A stretch of DNA of 32,457 nt from Candidatus Omnitrophota bacterium (GCA_026387595.1 JAPLLL010000007.1:1-32457), one strand, 5' to 3'; positions 1 to 25,133 are shown, numbered from the stretch's first letter. The notes: generated from the letters alone by a model not told the origin. Program-made: numbers and translations.

Positions 1-2
1 AG

Positions 3-872
3 GTAGCGTTTGACGTTGCTTCCAACCCGGAGTTTTTGCGGGAGGGCCAGGCGATCGGCGATTTCATGAAACCGGACAGGATCGTGATAGGCGTTGAATC
101 AAAGAAGGCAAAAGAGCTTTTGCTGGATCTGTACAGGCCGCTGGGCGCGCCTATCGTGGTTACTGATATAAAAAGCGCCGAGATAATAAAGCACGCCTCG
201 AACTCGTTTTTGGCGGCGAAGATATCGTTTATAAACGCAATAAGCAATGTTTGCGAAAAGGCATGCGCGGACATACAAAAAGTAGCGGCGGCAATGGGCC
301 TTGACAAACGCATTGGGAAAAGTTTCCTGAACGCCGGTATAGGCTACGGCGGATTTTGTTTTCCCAAGGATGTGTCCGCGTTTATAAGGATATCGGAAAA
401 GCTCGGGTATGATTTCGGCCTCCTCAAGGAAGTGGAGCGCATAAACGAATACCAGAAAAGGCTTTTTGTAAAAAAAATAGAAGACAGCCTCTGGATCGTG
501 AAAGGAAAACAGATCGGCCTTCTGGGCCTCGCATTTAAGCCCAATACGGATGACATAAGATTCGCCCCGGCCCTCGAGATAATCGAGGCGCTTATTTCCG
601 AAGGCGCGAAGATAAAGGCTTTTGACCCGCACGCAATGGGGAAAGCCAAAAAAACCCTGAAAGGCGTAAAATTCTGCAGGGATGCGTATGACGCGGCTGA
701 TGGGTCGGATTGCCTGGTGATCGCAACGGAATGGAACGAGTTTAAAGAACTTGACCTAAAAAAGGTAAAGAAGCTGCTGAAACAGCCGCTGATCATCGAC
801 GGGCGGAATATATATGACCCGGAGGCAATGAAAAAGGCAGGGTTTAAGTACATTTGTATGGGCAGGAAATAA
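3..872 (+). CDS. ugd: UDP-glucose 6-dehydrogenase, C-terminal portion (5' end lies outside the window)
   Basis: Frame 3 is open from the window edge. The translation VAFDVASNPEFLREGQAI... carries the NPEFLREG and GGFCFPKD motifs and the C-terminal GLAFKPNTDD domain of the UDP-glucose/GDP-mannose dehydrogenase family. The TTG at 36 in the ORF track is internal. Confidence 0.9.
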   Translation, partial: VAFDVASNPEFLREGQAIGDFMKPDRIVIGVESKKAKELLLDLYRPLGAPIVVTDIKSAEIIKHASNSFLAAKISFINAISNVCEKACADIQKVAAAMGLDKRIGKSFLNAGIGYGGFCFPKDVSAFIRISEKLGYDFGLLKEVERINEYQKRLFVKKIEDSLWIVKGKQIGLLGLAFKPNTDDIRFAPALEIIEALISEGAKIKAFDPHAMGKAKKTLKGVKFCRDAYDAADGSDCLVIATEWNEFKELDLKKVKKLLKQPLIIDGRNIYDPEAMKKAGFKYICMGRK

Positions 873-898
873 CGAAGGCACGACCGAGATTGACAGTC

Positions 899-947
899 GG
901 GACTGGTTCCAACCCAAATAATACACAGAAGCTAAGGAACCTGTCCC
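899..947 (+). other. Imperfect 12-bp stem (11/12 paired, one T-T mismatch) with a 25-nt loop, in the ugd / rmlC-like intergenic region
   Basis: GGGACTGGTTCC (899-910) pairs with GGAACCTGTCCC (936-947). No T-tract follows, so it is not a canonical intrinsic terminator. Confidence 0.3.
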
Positions 948-1011
948 ACAGAGTGATGAAACTGAGTAGCGACCTAAAAGAATGGTTGCAATAAATAATC
1001 GTGGAGAAATT

Positions 1012-1464
1012 ATGATAGAAGGTGTGAAAATTAAGAAATTAAAGATTATTCCGGATGAACGCGGCCGCCTCATGGAAATATTGCGCAAGGATGAGGATAT
1101 TTTTGTAAAATTCGGCCAGGTTTATATGACGACCGCATATCCTGGCGTGGTAAAGGCGTGGCATTATCACAAAAAGCAGACGGATAATTTTACGTGCGTG
1201 GCAGGCAGGATGCGGCTGGGGCTGTATGACGCAAGGCCGAACTCAAAAACGTTTAAGGCAGTTGAGGAGTTTATTGTGAGTTCGGATGAAAACCCGATAC
1301 TGGTTCAGATCCCGCCTTTAGTTTATCACGGCTTTAAATGCGTAGGCGATAAAGAAGCGATCGTGATAAATACCGTCACGCATCCGTATGATCCGAAAAA
1401 GCCGGACGAATACAGGATAGACGCTTATGATAATGATATCCCGTACGATTGGAGGAAACCATGA
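1012..1464 (+). CDS. dTDP-4-dehydrorhamnose 3,5-epimerase-like cupin (short RmlC family)
   Basis: IIPDERGRLMEI..., VKAWHYHKKQTD, YDARPNSKTF and PPLVYHGF match the RmlC-type cupin pattern. ATG 1012 is preceded by GGAG (1003-1006). ATG 982 is an in-frame alternative start. Confidence 0.75.
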   Translation: MIEGVKIKKLKIIPDERGRLMEILRKDEDIFVKFGQVYMTTAYPGVVKAWHYHKKQTDNFTCVAGRMRLGLYDARPNSKTFKAVEEFIVSSDENPILVQIPPLVYHGFKCVGDKEAIVINTVTHPYDPKKPDEYRIDAYDNDIPYDWRKP

Positions 1465-1763
1465 ACCCAGCCCCTCCTAAATTTTACTATGTATATATGC
1501 TAAGGAGCCCACAAACGAAATGGCTATATACTGGATGCACGTCAGACCTAAAAAAACGTTTGGCTGAACATAATTCAGGAAAAAATTATTCAACAAAGAA
1601 ATATTTACCTGTTGAATTGGTATATTATGAAGCGTATAGCTCTAAAAAGGATGCCTTTGAACGAGAAAATATGTTAAAACAACATGGCAGCAGTGTACAA
1701 AAACTTAAAAATAGACTTAAATGGACCTTAAAACCATTACTGAAAGAAGGAGGGGCTGGGTGA
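1461..1763 (+). CDS. Small GIY-YIG nuclease-domain protein (100 aa), cassette copy 1
   Basis: YYVYMLRS...LYTGCT...RLAEHN...FERENMLK fits the GIY-YIG catalytic-domain pattern (UPF0213/Slx1-like size). ATG 1461 follows GGAGG (1451-1455). It overlaps the upstream stop as ATGA and the downstream start as GTGA. Confidence 0.85.
   Translation: MNPAPPKFYYVYMLRSPQTKWLYTGCTSDLKKRLAEHNSGKNYSTKKYLPVELVYYEAYSSKKDAFERENMLKQHGSSVQKLKNRLKWTLKPLLKEGGAG
1465..1478. repeat. Left inverted-repeat arm of cassette 1 (ACCCAGCCCCTCCT)
   Basis: Exact reverse complement of 1748-1761. Confidence 0.95.
1748..1761. repeat. Right inverted-repeat arm of cassette 1 (AGGAGGGGCTGGGT); contains an SD-like GGAGG and the first two bases of the downstream GTG start
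   Basis: Exact reverse complement of 1465-1478. Confidence 0.95.
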
Positions 1764-2491
1764 AAGGCATAGTATTGGCAGGAGGCTTGGGGAAACGGCT
1801 ATACCCGTTGACAAAAATCACCAATAAACATCTTCTCCCTATTTATAATAAACCGATGATCTATTATCCGATAGAAACGCTTGTTGATGCCGGCATTAAA
1901 GAAATTGTTGTCGTAACAGGTGGCAATCACGCAGGCGAATTCTTAAGGCTTCTTGGGAACGGCCAGGAATTCGGTCTGAACCACCTTCATTACGCATATC
2001 AAGAGGGCGAAGGCGGGATCGCGGACGCGCTAAAATTGGCGGAACACCTTGTAGGTGACGATAAACTTGTAGTTATCCTTGGCGACAACATTATTGAAAA
2101 GAGCATAAGAAAACAGGTTGAGCGGTTTAAAAAACAAAGGCAGGGCGCGCGCATCCTGCTTAAAAAGGTAAGCGACCCGCAGCGTTTCGGCGTAGCCGAG
2201 ATAAAAAATGGCAAGGTTGTTTCGATAGAAGAAAAGCCAAAGAAACCAAAATCCGATTATATCGTTACCGGCATCTATATGTATGACAGCAAGGTCTTTG
2301 ACATTGCGCGTTCGCTTAAACCTTCGGGCAGGGGAGAGCTGGAGATAACCGACGTGAATAACGCCTATATTAAAAAAGGCCAGCTCACGTATGATTTCCT
2401 GGACGGCTGGTGGACCGATTCAGGCACGGTTGATTCGCTTTTGAAAGCGAATAATCTGGTTGCAAGGCTTAAGGGCGGGAAAAAGAAATAG
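1760..2491 (+). CDS. rmlA: Glucose-1-phosphate thymidylyl/nucleotidyltransferase (short RmlA-like form)
   Basis: (V)KGIVLAGGLGKRLYPLT..., LLPIYNKPMIYYP and EKPKKPKSDY are typical sugar-1-phosphate nucleotidylyltransferase motifs. GTG 1760 gives the canonical MKGIVLAGG N-terminus, with GGAGG 6 nt upstream. The ATG 1721 in the ORF track lies inside the GIY-YIG ORF and adds a non-homologous extension. Confidence 0.8.
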   Translation: MKGIVLAGGLGKRLYPLTKITNKHLLPIYNKPMIYYPIETLVDAGIKEIVVVTGGNHAGEFLRLLGNGQEFGLNHLHYAYQEGEGGIADALKLAEHLVGDDKLVVILGDNIIEKSIRKQVERFKKQRQGARILLKKVSDPQRFGVAEIKNGKVVSIEEKPKKPKSDYIVTGIYMYDSKVFDIARSLKPSGRGELEITDVNNAYIKKGQLTYDFLDGWWTDSGTVDSLLKANNLVARLKGGKKK

Positions 2492-3616
2492 ATGATACCG
2501 ATCGTAGATTTAAAAGGGCAATATCTAAGCGTAAAAAAAGAAGTAATGGAAGCTGTCGAAAAGGCCCTGGATAGCGGCCAGTTTGTAATGGGCGCGGAAG
2601 TCAAAAAGTTTGAAGAAGAAGCCGCGCAGTATACCAAAAGCAAATATGCCGTTTCCGTCGGGAACGGATCGGATGCATTACTTTTGGCTTTAAATGCCTA
2701 TGGAATAAAATCAGGTGATAGCGTTATTACGCCGGCATTTACATATTACGCCACTGCGGGCGCCATAGCGCGGTGCGGGGCAAAACCGGTTTTCTGCGAT
2801 ATTGACCCGAGGACGTATAATATCTCGCCTGAGAAATTGGAGGGGGTTCTTAGGGTCTTAGGGACAAAGGGTCATAGGGTTAAAGCGGTTATTCCTGTTC
2901 ATCTCTACGGGCAGATGGCGGAGATGGACGATATCCTGGCTATTGCGAAAAAGTACAATTTAAAAGTGATCGAGGATGCGGCGCAGGCGTTCGGCGCAAG
3001 CGACAAGGGTAGGAAGGCCGGCAGCATCGGCGATAGCGGCTGTTTTAGTTTTTATCCCGGCAAGAATTTAGGTGCTTACGGCGATGCCGGCTTGGTCGTA
3101 ACTAACGACAGCCAAACGGCTGGTTTAGTGAAGATCTACCGCAATCAGGGCGAGAAAAAGAAATACCAGCATTCGGTCATAGGCCATAACAGCCGCATGG
3201 ATACTATTCAGGCCGCGGTATTAAGCGTAAAGCTTAAATATATCGACGGGTGGAATAAAAAAAGGCAGCAATTAGCGGGGTTTTACGATAAGGAGCTGCG
3301 CAGTGCAGGCGTCATTACGCCGTTTGTCGCAAAGGATAAATTTCATATCTATCATTTATACGTGCTCCGGTTCAAGGATAAAGGCCAAAAAGACCGCATT
3401 GAAAAGAGCCTTAACGAGAAAGGCGTTGACGCAAGGACCTATTATCCTGTGCCGCTGCACCTGCAGGAGTGCTTTGAATACCTGGGATATAAAAAAGGTG
3501 ATTTTCCCGAAGCAGAAAAGGCGTGCGGCGAGACGCTCGCAATACCTATGTATCCTGAACTAAAACAGGAAGAGCAGGAATTTATCGTGAAGACAATAAA
3601 GGAAGGGCTAAAATGA
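2492..3616 (+). CDS. DegT/DnrJ/EryC1/StrS-family PLP-dependent sugar aminotransferase
   Basis: Full-length family pattern: [21 protein letters not shown] and [16 protein letters not shown] (PLP lysine). Confidence 0.9.
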
Positions 3617-4545
3617 AACTATTAGTTACCGGCGGGTGCGGTTTTATAGGCTCAAATTTTATCAGGTATATCCTGAAAAAACATCCGGGCTATAAAATCG
3701 TGAACCTTGACAACATTAAAGACCTGGAGAAAAAAAATAATTATAGATTTGTCAAAGGGGATATCTGCGACGAAAAAATAGTTTTAAAATTGTCAAAGGG
3801 TGCGGATGCAGTGATAAATTTTGCGGCCGAAACCCACGTTGACAGATCCATTAAGGACCCTGCAAGCTTTGTAAAGACCAATGTTTACGGCGTATATTCT
3901 ATTCTTGAGGCGGTCAGGAGGAACAGCATTAAACGGTTTGTTCAAATATCAACTGACGAAGTTTATGGCAGTATTTCCGTCGGAGAATTCAAGGAACCGG
4001 ATCCGCTCAGGCCCAACAGCCAGTATGCTGCCAGCAAGGAAGGCGCAGATCTTTTATGCAGGTCGTATTTTGTGACCTATAAAATGCAGGTTGTTATTAC
4101 GAGGAGTTCCAATAATTTCGGGCCGTATCAATACCCGGAAAAAGTGATCCCGCTTTTTGTTACGAATGCGCTGGAAAACAGGAAGCTGCCGGTTTACGCG
4201 GACGGCTTAAATGTGAGGGATTGGCTGTACGTAGAAGATAATTGCAGCGCCATAGACCTGGTTTTGCATAAAGGCCTTGCCGGTGAAGTTTATAATATCG
4301 GCGGCGGCAACGAACTCACGAACATGGCGCTTACTTACGCGATCCTGGGCCTGATGAGAAAACCCAAGAGCCTTATAAAATTCGTAAAGGACAGGCCCGG
4401 CCATGACAAACGATACGGCCTTGACTGCGGAAAAATAAAAAAAGAACTGGGCTGGGCACCGCGGCGCGGATTCAGGGCCGCCCTGAAGGAAACAGTTGAG
4501 TGGTATGAAGAAAATACAGAATGGTGGAAAAAACTTAAAGGATAA
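3613..4545 (+). CDS. rmlB: dTDP-glucose 4,6-dehydratase, lacking the conserved KLTYAGNLE segment
   Basis: [41 protein letters not shown] and [10 protein letters not shown] match RmlB. It overlaps degT by ATGA. See the finding on the 9-aa gap after VNLD. Confidence 0.85.
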
Positions 4546-4546
4546 A

Positions 4547-5848
4547 ATGGAAAATATATTGAAAAAGAAGATCCAGGAAAAGGAAGCAAAGATAGGTATT
4601 ATAGGCCTTGGTTACGTAGGGCTTCCGCTTGCGGTTGAATTTGCCAAAAAGGGCTTTGATGTCGTCGGGATAGATGTGGATAAGACAAAGGTCGCCTCGC
4701 TTAAACAGAAACGAAGCTATATCCTGGATGTTACCAGCGAGGATGTGAGGGCCGTTGTCAGCGCCGGGCTTTTTTACGCGACAACCGATTACGGCGCGAT
4801 AAAAAAGCTGGATGCGGTCATAATTTGTGTTCCCACCCCGTTAAGGAAAACAAAAGAACCCGATATTTCATACATTATATCAGCTGCGGAACAGATCGCA
4901 GCCAATAGCAAAAAAGGCCAGCTGGTTATCCTTGAAAGCACTACATATCCGGGCACTACAGAGGAGGTGGTGCTGCCGATCCTGGGGAAAAGCGGCATGA
5001 ATATAGACAAGGATTTTTTTCTCGCCTTCTCTCCGGAAAGAGTTGACCCGGGCAATTTAAAGTTCAAGACAAGGGATATACCCAAGATCGTGGGCGGCGT
5101 AACAAAAAAATCGTCTGATCTTGCGAAAACCTTGTATAGCCAGGTTATGAAAGAAGTCCTGACGGTTTCATCCAGCAAGGCAGCCGAAATGGTAAAGCTG
5201 CTTGAAAATACGTTCCGCAGCGTTAACATCGGCCTTGTCAACGAGATAGCCCTTATGTCGAATAAGCTTGGCATTAATGTCTGGGAAGTCATTGACGCCG
5301 CAAAGACGAAGCCGTTCGGATTCATGCCGTTTTATCCCGGGCCGGGCCTGGGCGGACACTGTATCCCCATTGATCCCCTGTATCTTTCCTGGAAAGCGCG
5401 CGCGTATGGTTTTGAGGCGAGATTTATTGAACTTGCCGATATGGTGAATTCCTACATGCCGGAATATGTAGTAAAACGCATTGGCGAGATCCTTAATGGA
5501 TTTAAAAAATCTCTTTTAGGTTCTAAGGTTCTGATCGTGGGGGTTACGTATAAACGGGACGTAAACGATATGCGGGAATCGCCGGCAATGGAGATCATAA
5601 GAGACCTGATGAAGAAAGGGGTTACAGTGTCGTATTTCGATCCATACGCGCCCAGGATAAATATTGACGGGAAAACGCTTTATTCAACAAAATGGAAACC
5701 GGCGATATTCAAAAAAGAGGACTGCGTAGTTATAATTACTGATCACTCGTCAATAGACTATGAAGAAATTTTAAAGAATTCCAAAATGGTGTTTGACACA
5801 AGAAATATCTATAAAAACATTGAGGCAAAAAACCTGGTGAGGCTATGA
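4547..5848 (+). CDS. Nucleotide-sugar dehydrogenase (UDP-GlcNAc/UDP-ManNAc 6-dehydrogenase family; WbpA/WecC/Cap5O-like)
   Basis: IGIIGLGYVGLPLA, SPERVDPGN, GPGLGGHCIP and GVTYKRDVNDMRESP match the family. ATG 4547 lies just after the rmlB stop (4543-4545). The TTG at 4496 is an unlikely upstream extension. Confidence 0.85.
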   Translation: MENILKKKIQEKEAKIGIIGLGYVGLPLAVEFAKKGFDVVGIDVDKTKVASLKQKRSYILDVTSEDVRAVVSAGLFYATTDYGAIKKLDAVIICVPTPLRKTKEPDISYIISAAEQIAANSKKGQLVILESTTYPGTTEEVVLPILGKSGMNIDKDFFLAFSPERVDPGNLKFKTRDIPKIVGGVTKKSSDLAKTLYSQVMKEVLTVSSSKAAEMVKLLENTFRSVNIGLVNEIALMSNKLGINVWEVIDAAKTKPFGFMPFYPGPGLGGHCIPIDPLYLSWKARAYGFEARFIELADMVNSYMPEYVVKRIGEILNGFKKSLLGSKVLIVGVTYKRDVNDMRESPAMEIIRDLMKKGVTVSYFDPYAPRINIDGKTLYSTKWKPAIFKKEDCVVIITDHSSIDYEEILKNSKMVFDTRNIYKNIEAKNLVRL

Positions 5849-5862
5849 ACCCCGCACCTTCT
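5849..5862. repeat. Left inverted-repeat arm of cassette 2 (ACCCCGCACCTTCT)
   Basis: Exact reverse complement of 6131-6144. It differs from the copy-1 arm at 3 positions, and each change is compensated in the partner arm. Confidence 0.95.
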
Positions 5863-5873
5863 GTATATTCAAA

Positions 5874-6146
5874 ATGTATTACGTATACCTTCTGAGAAGT
5901 GAGAAGAACGATAGTTTTTATATTGGATATACAAAAGATATCAATCGGCGATTTAAAGAGCATAATACAGGGTCGGTTGAATATACGAGGAAATATATGC
6001 CATGGGAATTAATTTACTATGAAAGCTTTATTTCGTTGGAAGATGCTAAAATACGTGAAAAAACTTTGAAGCATTTTGGAAAAGGATTTACACAATTGAA
6101 GATTAGACTCAAGAAGAGTTTGAATAAGAAAGAAGGTGCGGGGTGA
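5874..6146 (+). CDS. Small GIY-YIG nuclease-domain protein (90 aa), cassette copy 2
   Basis: MYYVYLLRS...FYIGYT...RFKEHN...IREKTLK matches the GIY-YIG pattern and, by eye, is roughly 40% identical to copy 1. It ends ...KEGAG (copy 1 ends ...EGGAG). There is no SD before ATG 5874, and the junction ATG at 5845 is in a different frame. Confidence 0.8.
   Translation: MYYVYLLRSEKNDSFYIGYTKDINRRFKEHNTGSVEYTRKYMPWELIYYESFISLEDAKIREKTLKHFGKGFTQLKIRLKKSLNKKEGAG
6131..6144. repeat. Right inverted-repeat arm of cassette 2 (AGAAGGTGCGGGGT)
   Basis: Exact reverse complement of 5849-5862. It supplies the G and T of the downstream GTG start (6143-6145). Confidence 0.95.
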
Positions 6147-7072
6147 AAAAAACGTATCTGGTTACGGGCGGGGCGGGATTTATAGGGTCAAATATCGTGG
6201 ATGAGTTGGTCAGACGCGGGCAACGTGTTAAAGTGGTTGACAGTTTCATTACCGGCCGCCGCGAAAATCTTAAACACCTTTCAGGCAAGATAGAATTGGT
6301 AAAAGGCGACATCAGGGATCTGAACCTTATGGTTAAGATCACCAAAGGGATAGACTATGTAATACACCAGGCTGCGTTCAGGTCTGTGCCAAAATCCGTC
6401 GAGGACCCGACGCTTTGTACCGAGACAAACGTTAATGGGACGCTCAATGTCTTGATCGCGGCGCATAAAGCGAAAGTTAAACGCGTAGTATACGCGTCCA
6501 GCAGCTCTGTCTACGGCGATGTTATTAAATTTCCCCAAAGGGAAGAGGATGATTTGTTCCCGCTTTCGCCGTATGGCGCGTCAAAATTGGCCGGCGAGCA
6601 TTATTGCAAAGTTTACACGGCCACGTGCGGGCTTGAGACGGTAGGCTTAAGGTATTTCAACGTTTTCGGGCCCAGGCAAAATCCTGAATCGAAATATTCG
6701 GCCGTGATCCCGATATTTATTTACAAAATGGTAAGGGGCCAGCGGCCCGTTGTTGACGGAGACGGAAAACAATCGCGCGATTTTACCTATGTTGCGAATG
6801 TTGTAGAAGCTAATCTGCGGGCAATAGTTGCAAAAGGCGCTTCAGGGCAGGTCATTAATGTCGGATGCGGCGGCAGTTATTCTGTATTAGATATCATAAC
6901 AGCGCTGAATAAATTCATCGGAAAAGATATAAAACCGGTTTTCGGGCCGGCCAGAAAGGGCGATGCCAGGAAAACCAAAGCGGATATCAGCAGGCTAAAA
7001 AAGTATCTCGGCATAACACCTAAGGTGGGTTTTGAAGACGGACTTAAGAAGACCCTGGCCTGGTTTGCCTGA
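6143..7072 (+). CDS. NAD-dependent epimerase/dehydratase (extended SDR; UDP-sugar 4-epimerase-like, WbpP/TviC type)
   Basis: (V)[28 protein letters not shown] and QSRDFTYV match the family. The GTG start overlaps the GIY-YIG stop as GTGA. Confidence 0.85.
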   Translation: MKKTYLVTGGAGFIGSNIVDELVRRGQRVKVVDSFITGRRENLKHLSGKIELVKGDIRDLNLMVKITKGIDYVIHQAAFRSVPKSVEDPTLCTETNVNGTLNVLIAAHKAKVKRVVYASSSSVYGDVIKFPQREEDDLFPLSPYGASKLAGEHYCKVYTATCGLETVGLRYFNVFGPRQNPESKYSAVIPIFIYKMVRGQRPVVDGDGKQSRDFTYVANVVEANLRAIVAKGASGQVINVGCGGSYSVLDIITALNKFIGKDIKPVFGPARKGDARKTKADISRLKKYLGITPKVGFEDGLKKTLAWFA

Positions 7073-7096
7073 TGCATGTATCCGATATAATTTTTC

Positions 7097-7124
7097 TTGA
7101 CTAATCCCGCCTAAATATTATAAT
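7097..7124 (+). promoter_or_regulatory. Sigma70-like promoter candidate upstream of uxs (TTGACT - 16 nt - TATAAT)
   Basis: TTGACT lies at 7097-7102 and TATAAT at 7119-7124, in the 95-bp AT-rich gap between the epimerase and uxs. The -10 sits inside a 12-bp palindrome, ATATTATAATAT (7115-7126). Confidence 0.55.
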
Positions 7125-12947: not shown

Positions 12948-13286
12948 ATGATTGAACAAAACAATAAGCCCAAAGAAGAAGCTTTCTATATCATCAGGCA
13001 TCTGGAAGAGAACCCAGCCGCTACACAACGTACAGTTTCGGACAAATTAGGCATTTCACTAGGTAAAACCAACTACCTTATAAAAGAACTTATCAAAAAA
13101 GGTTTCATAGAAGCCCAGAATTTCACTTATAATTCCGGAAAGCTGCAGAAGGTCCAGTATCTACTTACAAAAGCGGGGCTCGAAGAGAAATGGCGCCTTG
13201 CGAATTATTTCATGCAGATAAAAGAAGCCGAATATAACGTTATGAAGCAGGAGCTGTCCAAACAGCATAATAATAAGGTTATATGA
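12948..13286 (+). CDS. MarR/winged-helix transcriptional regulator of the EPS-associated type
   Basis: The 112-aa protein carries QRTVSDKLGISLGKTNYLIKELIKKGFI (HTH) followed by KVQYLLTKAGLEEK (wing/helix), the typical architecture of small EPS-locus MarR regulators. Confidence 0.7.
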   Translation: MIEQNNKPKEEAFYIIRHLEENPAATQRTVSDKLGISLGKTNYLIKELIKKGFIEAQNFTYNSGKLQKVQYLLTKAGLEEKWRLANYFMQIKEAEYNVMKQELSKQHNNKVI

Positions 13287-14652
13287 ACGCATATATGATA
13301 TACCCGTGCCAGGGGAACATGACCAGTTTTAATCATGGTCTAGCATCCCTGATAGCGGTATTAAAACAACGCGGCCACCGCGTGCACCTGATGCTCGTGG
13401 ATGATTATACCGGCCCGCGTCGGATATTAAAAGACATAACAGATTTTAAGGCCGACCTGGTCGGTTTTTCCTGTGCGTCTAATTACTGGCAGTACGTAAA
13501 GACCTTGTCGCGGAAGATGCGTTCCGTTACGGGCCTAAAAAATATGCCGATATTCGTAGGCGCGCCCCACGCAATATCATGCCCCTCCTCCCTGGCCGAA
13601 AGCCCTGATATAGACGGTTTTTGCGTAAGCGAAGCAGGGATTTTACGGATACTGCCGGCTTTTATTTCAGGGATCGAAAGGGTAGCGTAATAAAAAATGA
13701 TATCGGTATGTTAATAGATGACCTTGACGGACTGCCGTTCCCGGACAGGCAGGAGTATCCGCAGGCGGTGTTCCATAACTATGCCAATTTTATGTTTTCT
13801 AGAGGATGCCCGTATTCCTGCAGCTATTGCTGCAATTCCACATATCACCGGATATTCAGAGGAAAAGGAAATATGATACGGCACAGGAGCGTATCAAAAG
13901 CTATCGAAGAAATAAGATTATTTCTCGGTAAATATAAATCTAAGATGTTAAGTTTTGACGACGACTGTTTCAATAAAAAACCGCAGTGGTTCAGGGAATT
14001 TTGCGCCGAGTACAAAAATAATATCGGTATTCCGTATACATGTAACACGAGGCCTGAATTATTGGACAGTGAAACCGCGAGGATGCTGAAGGGGTCGGGA
14101 TGCAGGAAGATTAATATAGGCATTGAATCCGGGGACGAGACACTGAGGAGGACGGTCCTTAACCGCAACATGCGGGACGAGCAGATCATAGCGGCTTTTA
14201 ATTACGCGAAAGAAGCCGGGCTCGAGACGATGTCTTTTAACATGATAGGTTTCCCGGGCGAGACTAAAGAAAGCATTCAAAGTACCGTAAACCTGAATAA
14301 ATTGATCAAGCCGACCTACGCGCAGGTATCCGTATTTTATCCGTACGCGGGTACTCCGCTCGGAGAGCTTTGCAGGGAAAAAGGGTACATTGAAAAAGAA
14401 AGCAGCCTGTTCAGCTATATCGGACAGGGTGTTTCGGCGCTTAACCTACCGGGCCTTTCGAAAAAAGAGATAAAGGATATGTTCTTGACGTTCGACCTTC
14501 AGATATCAGGCGCCCCGGGCGGTTTTAAGAAGGCGTATATCGCAAAAAAACTCAAATACGCTATTTTTTCGCTTTACAGCCGCCTTCCGTATTTTTTGAA
14601 AGATTTCCTGAAACATGCGCGTGCATGTGCGGACGCGCATTCCATTTTGTAA
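13283..14652 (+). pseudogene. B12-binding-domain radical SAM enzyme, interrupted by a frame change near 13630-13650
   Basis: The 5' ORF (13283-13690) encodes a cobalamin-binding Rossmann domain (DLVGFSC...PIFVGAPHA...DIDGFCVSEAG). The 3' ORF (frame of 13621-14652) continues with DFTDTAGFYFRDRKGSVIKN...LPFPDR...SRGCPYSCSYCC (CxxxCxxC)...INIGIESGD. One protein is split over two frames. Confidence 0.8.
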
Positions 14653-24222: not shown

Positions 24223-25133
24223 ATGGCAATTTTTAATAACAAGGTTATCCTTATAGCAGGAGGAACCGGTTCGTTCGGCAAAAAATTTGTAGAAACCATC
24301 CTAAACAGGTATAAACCCAAAAAGGTCATAATCTACAGCAGGGACGAGTTTAAACAGCACGAGATGCAGCATCAGTTTAAGGATCACAGGAACATCAGAT
24401 TTTTTATAGGCGATGTAAGGGACAAAGACAGGCTGAGGATGGCCTTTCAGGAGGTTGATTTTGTCGTGCACGCCGCCGCCTTAAAACAGGTCCCGGCCAT
24501 GGAATACAATCCTGCCGAGGCCGTCAAGACAAATACCTTAGGCGCCATGAACGTTATCGATGCGGCGCCACCAAATTATGCGCGGACAAATTATTTATCG
24601 CGGGCAATTCCTATTCCGGGAAGGCAAATACGAGATTCAGCGTTGTAAGGTACGGGAATGTATTGGATAGCAGGGGCAGCGTAGTGCCTTTTTTTCGCCA
24701 AAAGGCAAAAGAAGGCGTCATCCCTGTCACAGACATAAGGATGACGCGCTTTTTGATCACGTTAGGGCAAACGGTGGATTTTGTTATCAACTGTTTCAAA
24801 TTAATGCGCGGCGGAGAGCTTTTTGTGCCGAAAATTCCCAGCGTAAAGGTTGTTGATATCGCGAAGGCCATAGGAGGGCCCCGGTGCAGAATAAAAATAA
24901 TCGGTATAAGGCCCGGAGAGAAGCTCCACGAAGTCCTGGTCTCCGAGGACGATGCCAGAAACGTTTTGGAGCTTAAAGATTGTTATATGCTTAAGCCGAG
25001 CTTTCCGTGGTGGGATAAGAAAGCGCATTTTAACGGTAAAAAAGTGCCGGATGGCTTCAGGTACTCAAGCGATACAAATAAGGATTGGCTCAGGGGTGAT
25101 AGGTTAAAAAAGGTTCTAACCTCGGTTAAATGA
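24223..25133 (+). pseudogene. pseB: UDP-N-acetylglucosamine 4,6-dehydratase (inverting) PseB/FlaA1 homologue, disrupted by an internal out-of-frame deletion at about 24562-24566
   Basis: The 5' frame gives ILIAGGTGSFGKKF...HAAALKQVPAMEYNPAEAVKTNTLGAMNVIDAA. The 3' frame gives GATKLCADKLFIAGN...RFSVVRYGNVLDSRGSVVPFF...PVTDIRMTRF...GIRPGEKLHE. About 23 residues are missing, including the STDKA active-site segment, and the frame shifts. Confidence 0.85.

Follow-up and report, generated by a model that had tools for sequence, protein, structure and literature searches.

A putative selfish cassette built from a GIY-YIG nuclease gene and a terminal stem, found at operon junctions and in RNA genes

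Two small genes for GIY-YIG nucleases, each bracketed by a perfect 14-nt inverted repeat, interrupt gene junctions in a contig of Candidatus Omnitrophota bacterium, at places where related contigs carry the same genes without interruption. Comparison of occupied with empty junctions identifies each cassette as an insertion and not as a fixed part of the pathway, and we put at roughly 0.7 the probability that the cassettes are copies of an ultra-compact selfish mobile element, made of one Slx1-family GIY-YIG gene and a terminal inverted repeat whose stem loops the insert out. The stretch of DNA that was analysed, here called the window, is 32,457 nucleotides long, and its ORF list is one of sugar-biosynthesis genes. 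At two places far from the cassettes the reading frames are themselves irregular: a Polysacc_synt_2 (PF02719) gene lies in two ORFs (24223-24648 and 24663-25133) from which profile positions 117-171 are absent, and is a broken gene or an assembly error, and a B12-binding domain ORF (13283-13690) and a radical SAM ORF (13621-14652), overlapping in different frames, are probably one frameshifted B12-binding radical SAM gene.

An earlier note on this DNA had described the first cassette as a nuclease ORF of 100 codons that contains both arms of a perfect 14-bp inverted repeat, with 269 nt between the arms, and that overlaps the genes on either side by 4 bp. Sequence reading and a repeat search bear out this layout: the arms are exact reverse complements at that spacing, both are enclosed by the ORF (Table 1), and the overlaps are ATGA with the cupin stop codon (1461-1464) and GTGA with the GTG start of the NTP_transferase gene (1760-1763). 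A second cassette in the same window, at 5849-6144, had escaped the note. Perfect inverted repeats of at least 14 nt with arms within 400 nt occur just twice in the whole window, each time bracketing a GIY-YIG ORF, where by our own arithmetic about 0.05 would be expected by chance; the repeat of copy 1 is above chance. The arm motif, with up to three mismatches allowed, has 8 matches in the window against 2.08 expected, a number reached in none of 100 shuffles. Predicted folds of the two copies (z-scores -4.1 and -6.3) contain the terminal stem in the MFE structure as well as in the centroid.

Table 1. Features of the two cassettes and of the genes that flank them, in window coordinates
Feature	Position	Strand	Basis and remarks
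Left arm, copy 1, ACCCAGCCCCTCCT	1465..1478	+	Anti-Shine-Dalgarno (SD)-like; in MFE and centroid stem
Right arm, copy 1, AGGAGGGGCTGGGT	1748..1761	+	AGGAGG (1748-1753) is SD for downstream gene; in MFE and centroid stem
GIY-YIG nuclease ORF, copy 1, 100 aa	1461..1763	+	ATG 1461, TGA 1763; Pfam PF01541
Upstream host gene, dTDP-sugar epimerase-like cupin (rmlC-like)	982..1464	+	Pfam dTDP_sugar_isom; stop TGA 1462-1464 flush with left arm
ATGA, resident start codon of displaced NTP_transferase gene, now start of nuclease ORF	1461..1464	+	Overlaps upstream stop; empty-site comparison
Displaced host gene, NTP_transferase (rmlA-like)	1760..2491	+	GTG start is last 2 nt of arm plus 1 flanking nt
TGAA, direct repeat of 1462-1465	1761..1764	+	Empty-site comparison; insertion boundary ambiguous, 2-bp GA to 4-bp TGAA
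Left arm, copy 2, ACCCCGCACCTTCT	5849..5862	+	Repeat search, folding
Right arm, copy 2, AGAAGGTGCGGGGT	6131..6144	+	Repeat search, folding
GIY-YIG nuclease ORF, copy 2, 90 aa	5874..6146	+	Protein shares 47% identity with that of copy 1
Upstream host gene of copy 2, UDP-glucose/GDP-mannose dehydrogenase	4496..5848	+	Stop TGA 5846-5848
Captured ATGA, then 16-codon upstream ORF through left arm	5845..5895	+	Out of frame with nuclease ORF; sequence reading
Displaced host gene, NAD-dependent epimerase	6143..7072	+	GTG start straddles arm end

Scans of genome and metagenome collections, with alignment A3 as the query (A2 being too diverse), brought together 146 unique relatives from Omnitrophota, many Patescibacteria lineages, Planctomycetota (including Scalindua) and one Nanoarchaeota archaeon; all of these sequences are metagenome assemblies, and related loci are not independent samples. 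Measured between the start and end windows of one and the same relative, perfect repeats have a median maximum length of 14 nt, and 76% reach at least 12 nt, while random cross-locus pairs give a median of 6 nt and reach 12 nt in only 1.8%. From arm to arm the elements mostly measure 270-320 bp. When 22 distinct arm pairs of the start-codon class were anchored at their outer ends, 263 of 264 pairs at stem positions 1-12 proved to be Watson-Crick, with two to four pair types at the variable positions. A closing stem formed by complementary termini, as in an rRNA intervening sequence (IVS), is present throughout the family.

The arms of copy 1 do encode NPAPP and EGGAG, as the earlier note had pointed out, but these peptides do not explain the repeat; they are a side effect, since the covarying stem is untranslated in most relatives. 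The ORF starts beyond the left arm in 73 of 103 scorable relatives, and in L082 and L001 it ends before a right arm that is still perfect. Between the two window copies the arms differ at three positions, each compensated on the opposite arm; two of these fall on wobble positions in the reading frame of copy 1, and the left arm of copy 2 lies outside the nuclease frame, so that the repeat is to be seen as a feature of the nucleic acid and not as a by-product of the two peptides. It is hardly credible, then, that the complementary ends merely reflect conserved terminal peptides (MNPAPP...GGAG) of an ordinary, vertically inherited UPF0213 housekeeping nuclease, even though MNPAPP and GGAG are kept in about 25 of 30 close homologues and mostly vertical inheritance has been assumed for bacterial Slx1-family proteins (PMC1564403): wobble positions covary, the arms are perfect where they are untranslated (copy 2, L082, L001), and empty sites exist. 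With the arms mostly untranslated and the stem covarying, a coding-constraint origin of the repeat was rejected.

Copy 1 is separated from its closest relatives by a dS of 0.8-1.0 and a dN/dS of 0.09-0.17, and the 14-nt left arm is identical in all three, the right arm showing one difference, in L081. So low a dN/dS, with arms unchanged despite this dS, argues that nuclease and arms are both under selection, which for the nuclease, judged by a dN/dS of about 0.1, is purifying. Among the 118 bracketed elements, the ORF is intact in 110 and the catalytic motif present in 109. Because dS is about 1 even between the closest copies, no very recent transposition has been caught.

The note's suggestion of an inserted mobile cassette could be assessed by the comparison it had proposed, with orthologous junctions in relatives, and it is supported. 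A contig found through relatives of the window cupin (L085, its cupin protein 82% identical) has the same seven-gene order as window positions 1-7100 with both cassettes missing, and in contig L084 junction 1 is likewise uninterrupted. The empty junction 1 reads GATTGGAGGAAATAAAAATGAAAGGCATT in L085 and ACTATGAAGGGCGTG in L084, with ATGAAAGGC and ATGAAGGGC, respectively, at the start-codon point, and the occupied one GATTGGAGGAAACCATGA[ACCC...GGGT]GAAAGGCATA; junction 2 reads GTGAGGTTGTGAAGACTACC when empty in L085 (start-codon point GTTGTGAAGACTACC) and GTGAGGCTATGA[ACCCC...GGGGT]GAAAAAAACG when occupied. The inserted DNA measures 299 bp and interrupts the downstream gene after its fourth nucleotide, between ATGA and A, and the boundary repeat at start-codon insertions is GA, ambiguous up to TGAA. 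Inside the element GC content is 31%, compared with about 45% in the flanks. The closest nuclease homologues stand between unrelated gene pairs, those 75-85% identical to copy 1 being found at alaS/hisD, HycI/unknown and aldo-keto reductase/DsrE-like junctions. A vertically fixed pathway gene was rejected on account of the uninterrupted junctions in L085 and L084. Just upstream of the first interrupted pair, a spacer of about 140 nt (873-1011) separates the UDP-glucose dehydrogenase and cupin genes, which overlap in L085; it contains a 12-bp hairpin (GGGACTGGTTCC / GGAACCTGTCCC, at 899-947) and could be the remnant of another small insertion.

Both neighbours are left intact by the insertion. 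The upstream gene retains its TGA stop codon, the nuclease ORF of copy 1 takes over the resident ATG together with the resident SD (GGAGGA, 1451-1456, ahead of the cassette), and the stop codon of that ORF is formed by the terminal T of the arm and the repeated GA. For the displaced gene a new SD and a GTG start come from the right arm, whose AGGAGG stands six nucleotides before the GTG. A long downstream ORF that starts at the last two arm nucleotides and one flanking nucleotide is found in 21 of the 118 bracketed elements; TGA is flush with the left arm in 17 of these, and in 13 so is the stop codon that ends an upstream ORF 60 aa or more in length. The same geometry is found in L077 and L078, at what translations lead us to take for an infC/rpmI and a ribosomal-protein junction, respectively. 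At least 22 different protein-gene junctions are occupied, with just ATGA(A) in common.

The first reading of this locus had taken the protein to be a GIY-YIG nuclease without a DNA-binding domain and had recommended an HMM search, whose outcome agrees: Pfam GIY-YIG (PF01541) matches copy 1 with 60.2 bits (E 2.4e-16) and copy 2 with 58.8 bits, above a cut-off of 22.6, and no second domain was found. The catalytic Tyr residues of GIY and YIG and the catalytic Arg, His and Glu are conserved, with Y12, Y23, G25, R33, H37 and E69 invariant in 30 sequences. The 100-aa protein of copy 1 contains the GIY-YIG domain alone (residues 9-80), modelled as the core and one long helix; no C-terminal DNA-binding module of the I-TevI type (NUMOD, zinc finger or HTH) was detected in it by Pfam or in the model. 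NCBIfam assigned copy 1 to no family and matched copy 2 only below threshold. By sequence (phmmer) the nearest solved structures are the UPF0213 proteins BH0048 (1ZG2, E 2.5e-6) and EF2693 (1YWL). With the AlphaFold model (pLDDT 83.5), Foldseek found the Slx1 nuclease domain at TM 0.53-0.62 (query-normalised), rmsd 1.8-4.4 Å and 28-34% identity, and I-TevI and UvrC far more weakly, at E of about 0.2 or worse. Sequence matches and the predicted fold alike thus place the nuclease closest to the Slx1/UPF0213 branch, as a minimal single domain. A structure-selective nuclease without a DNA-binding domain, an activity that we infer, would fit arms that conserve pairing over sequence. The structures 1ZG2 and 1YWL have been assigned to a bacterial Slx1 family of minimal domains, which was viewed as mainly vertically inherited, although the same study asked whether such members could be molecular parasites (Dunin-Horkawicz et al., PMC1564403).

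Beyond start codons, the family occupies the genes of several structured RNAs. In 16 elements (at tRNA-Ala in 12, Val in 2, Ile in 1 and Tyr in 1) the last four nucleotides of the right arm, or five in one case, are the start of a tRNA of the GGGC type, and in two more the end of the right arm forms the start of a tmRNA. At these tRNA and tmRNA insertions an upstream copy, sometimes decayed, repeats the initial 8-11 nt of the RNA gene. At tmRNA loci it is the right-hand copy with which the 3' acceptor strand pairs, so that the copy on the left of the element is to be read as a decaying duplicate and was rejected as the true 5' acceptor strand. Direct repeats therefore differ in length with the target, from 2-4 bp at start codons to 8-11 nt at tRNA and tmRNA genes, and for this reason no single simple model of target duplication holds. 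In RNase P RNA, 11 elements lie directly upstream of an GGAAAGUCC motif and about five before UAAGGGUGAA, sites that we read as the P3 and P12 hairpins from flanking motifs and not from structure alignments. Another 16 elements lie in or against 16S and three in 23S rRNA genes, the recurrent 16S sites being, as we presume on the same footing (flanking motifs, without structure alignments), the V1 and V3 hairpins. Every one of the 37 rRNA flank matches has the same orientation as the ORF. Sites used repeatedly in different lineages are tRNAs that begin with GGGC, RNase P RNA and, in 16S, a site around position 415.

Several of these loci have peculiarities of their own. In L018 (9996-10476) the 5' segment of a tRNA-Ala is present three times, as 11 nt to the left of a cassette, as 20 nt to its right and in the real tRNA 110 nt further on, which suggests serial insertions at the same tRNA. 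The flanks in L101, L148, L151 and L045 define a subclass of the form cTTG/ACCCC...GGGGT/TGACa (slashes marking the ends of the element) with a TTGAC repeat on the left, in which the right end and its flank make up TTGACA, similar to a -35 promoter box.

L091, L034, L009, L045 and L004 contain stems without an ORF whose arms resemble those of the resident full copy, and one solo stem, at the RNase P site read as P3, is capped by a GAAA loop of the GNRA type. L091 has a full cassette in tandem with an ORF-less remnant at the start codon of another NTP_transferase gene (2501-2900), and an 80-bp ORF-less stem with matching arms (4092-4171) at the start of a nearby downstream cupin-like gene. In L004, ATGA is separated from the full cassette by a 28-nt ORF-less hairpin (ACCCAGCCCCTGC / GCAGGGGCTGGGT, at 3296-3329), which may be a footprint of excision or deletion.

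The recurrence of the same sites in different lineages and the presence/absence variation at conserved junctions, along with a catalytic domain that has the classical homing endonuclease fold (PMC1564403), raise the question of whether the cassette is a free-standing homing endonuclease gene, spreading only by double-strand breaks and homologous repair between alleles, its many sites reflecting rare illegitimate events and its stem merely lessening harm to the host. We regard this as less likely than not, for the protein has no DNA-binding domain of the I-TevI kind and its structural matches to I-TevI and UvrC are weak, the many protein-gene junctions share no more than ATGA(A), and the direct repeats that flank the elements are lineage-specific; PMC11270868, moreover, judges GIY-YIG ORFs in rRNA genes to lie outside a homing context.

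The strand in which the stem is under selection can be inferred from its imperfect pairs. Among 115 distinct elements, non-Watson-Crick stem positions comprise 30 G.U and 5 A.C (p = 2e-5), or 27 and 5 if only isolated mismatches are counted, and since decay at the level of the duplex should give G.U and A.C equally, the stem appears to be selected in one strand, the sense strand. This bias, together with residence in essential structured RNAs, strict co-orientation and the GAAA-capped solo stem, favours an RNA stem: the sequence data, and the analogy with the rRNA IVS, point to a stem that acts in RNA rather than only as a terminal repeat of the transposase type. A hairpin in the single-stranded coding strand of DNA also fits the G.U bias and is not excluded. 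It thus remains possible, at somewhat less than even odds, that the arms are the ends of a DNA-level transposon, where the Slx1-like nuclease recognises a stem or cruciform in single-stranded DNA, excises the element and cuts its targets, pairing in RNA being incidental. The nearest relative of the nuclease, Slx1, is a branched-DNA-specific enzyme, and no DNA-binding domain is present; arms covary and inner sequence is not conserved, a GA or TGAA repeat flanks the insertion, ORF-less stems have the arms of the resident full copy, and tandem copies occur, all as such a transposon would have it. Against this stand the strand-specific asymmetry of G.U over A.C, elements within rRNA and RNase P RNA that must be tolerated as RNA, and the GNRA-type loop on the solo stem at the putative P3 site, and we know of no strand-transfer chemistry in GIY-YIG enzymes.

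If the cassette is a selfish element with a stem that works in RNA, as we prefer to read it, the arms would pair in the polycistronic transcript and loop out the 270-nt insert, bringing the upstream stop codon back beside the downstream start codon in the way that a stem closes an rRNA IVS. The stem would damp translation of the nuclease, and a ribosome finishing the upstream gene would melt the left arm and so free the downstream ribosome-binding site, that is, the donated SD. In rRNA, RNase P RNA and the leaders of tRNA and tmRNA, the stem may allow folding of the host RNA, or its trimming, for which RNase III is the probable enzyme. Spread would be driven by the nuclease cutting target DNA, possibly with a 2-nt stagger at TGA-type sites or, structure-specifically, at the base of the stem. 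Characterised GIY-YIG enzymes leave 2-nt 3' overhangs, with which the 2-bp GA repeat would be compatible. A hydrolytic nuclease alone cannot join DNA, and host repair or ligation is needed to complete insertion. There is no direct evidence of transcription, RNase III cleavage, translational coupling or nuclease activity, and the mechanism of mobility is unresolved. A more far-reaching reading, which we offer only tentatively, is an autonomous element of about 300 bp and of an unrecognised class, which moves when its only protein, an Slx1-like, structure-selective nuclease, cuts at the foot of the element's stem and at short generic sites (start codons, the 5' ends of RNA genes beginning with GGG, and helix tips), and which neutralises its own insertion by rebuilding the 5' end of its target and folding out of the host RNA; on this reading it has become distributed among bacteria of the Candidate Phyla Radiation (CPR), Omnitrophota, Planctomycetota and DPANN archaea.

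Should the selfish-element reading be correct, the cassettes would rank among the smallest autonomous mobile elements in prokaryotes, and at least part of the enigmatic UPF0213/bacterial Slx1 family would have a role as molecular parasites. The reading would account for unclassified GIY-YIG insertions in CPR rRNA genes, to which it adds tRNA, tmRNA, RNase P RNA and operon junctions, and it would describe a harmless form of parasitism within an operon, in which one start codon is captured, a new one is donated and the junction is restored by the stem. For gene callers the consequences would be displaced genes with wrong starts and fragmented RNA genes wherever these bear a cassette.

Among known systems, rRNA IVS, which are closed by terminal repeats and cut by RNase III, as in the Coxiella burnetii 23S IVS with its S23p ORF (PMC4990558), share with the cassette a length of a few hundred nucleotides, complementary ends that pair into a stem around an ORF-bearing loop, and residence in a host RNA. 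They are also sporadic and horizontally acquired, and relatives of the cassette occupy rRNA and RNase P RNA. Unlike the S23p ORF of an IVS, a four-helix bundle, the ORF of the cassette is a GIY-YIG nuclease; the window copies stand at mRNA gene junctions, where they rebuild a start codon and SD, and the family also targets the 5' ends of tRNA and tmRNA genes. If location in an rRNA helix is made the criterion, the window copies fail it, being at protein-gene junctions, while about 19 relatives lie inside 16S or 23S genes. In L007 (2411-2764) a 23S_rRNA_IVP (PF05635) ORF lies 112 nt downstream of a GIY-YIG cassette and outside any rRNA gene, so that two kinds of small cassette known from rRNA insertions adjoin.

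Similar in content are GIY-YIG ORFs in rRNA insertions of CPR bacteria, which match neither intron class and are termed sparse and outside homing by Tsurumaki et al. (2024, PMC11270868); they belong to the same protein family and to the same kind of non-group I/II rRNA insertion. The term 'inverted repeat' is absent from the passages of that paper that were searched, and no mention was found there of non-rRNA targets, Omnitrophota, insertion at start codons or ORF-less derivatives. More widely, open-access papers and preprints, to which the search was confined, contained no description of the terminal stem or of start-codon capture, of targets other than rRNA, or of copies in Omnitrophota. The earlier note knew of no described element class with this exact layout; none was found in that literature either, although GIY-YIG ORFs in CPR non-intron rRNA insertions had already been noted (PMC11270868), so that the class is in part on record.

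Seg and Mob of T4-like phages are, like the cassette, selfish small nuclease genes wedged between host genes, but they have C-terminal DNA-binding modules, no terminal stem and no start-codon replacement (PMC2988022), whereas the cassette encodes a bare Slx1-type domain. A scan of IMG/VR viral contigs found no relatives, and hence there is no sign of a phage vector. The UPF0213/bacterial Slx1 proteins BH0048 and EF2693 are nearest in sequence and fold and are likewise minimal single domains, but they are deemed mainly vertical and have no described mobile context (PMC1564403). Insertion sequences and MITEs resemble the cassette in their terminal inverted repeat, multiple copies and ORF-less derivatives, and to some degree in a short flanking direct repeat, the length of which varies with the target in the cassette family; in the cassette, however, the arms covary instead of being conserved in sequence, orientation always follows host transcription, and Pfam identified no recognised transposase (DDE, HUH, Ser or Tyr), the sole ORF being the GIY-YIG nuclease. 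With covarying arms and no transposase, classical IS and MITE readings were rejected. An integron cassette was rejected too, since the repeat spans the ORF and nothing integrase-like is on the window ORF list, only some of whose ORFs were profile-searched. Rfam placed no family in the window, giving no sign of residence in a self-splicing intron, and the cassette lies between ORFs. In its make-up the cassette combines known kinds, the IVS and the free-standing endonuclease gene, and there is a real chance that it also constitutes a new class.
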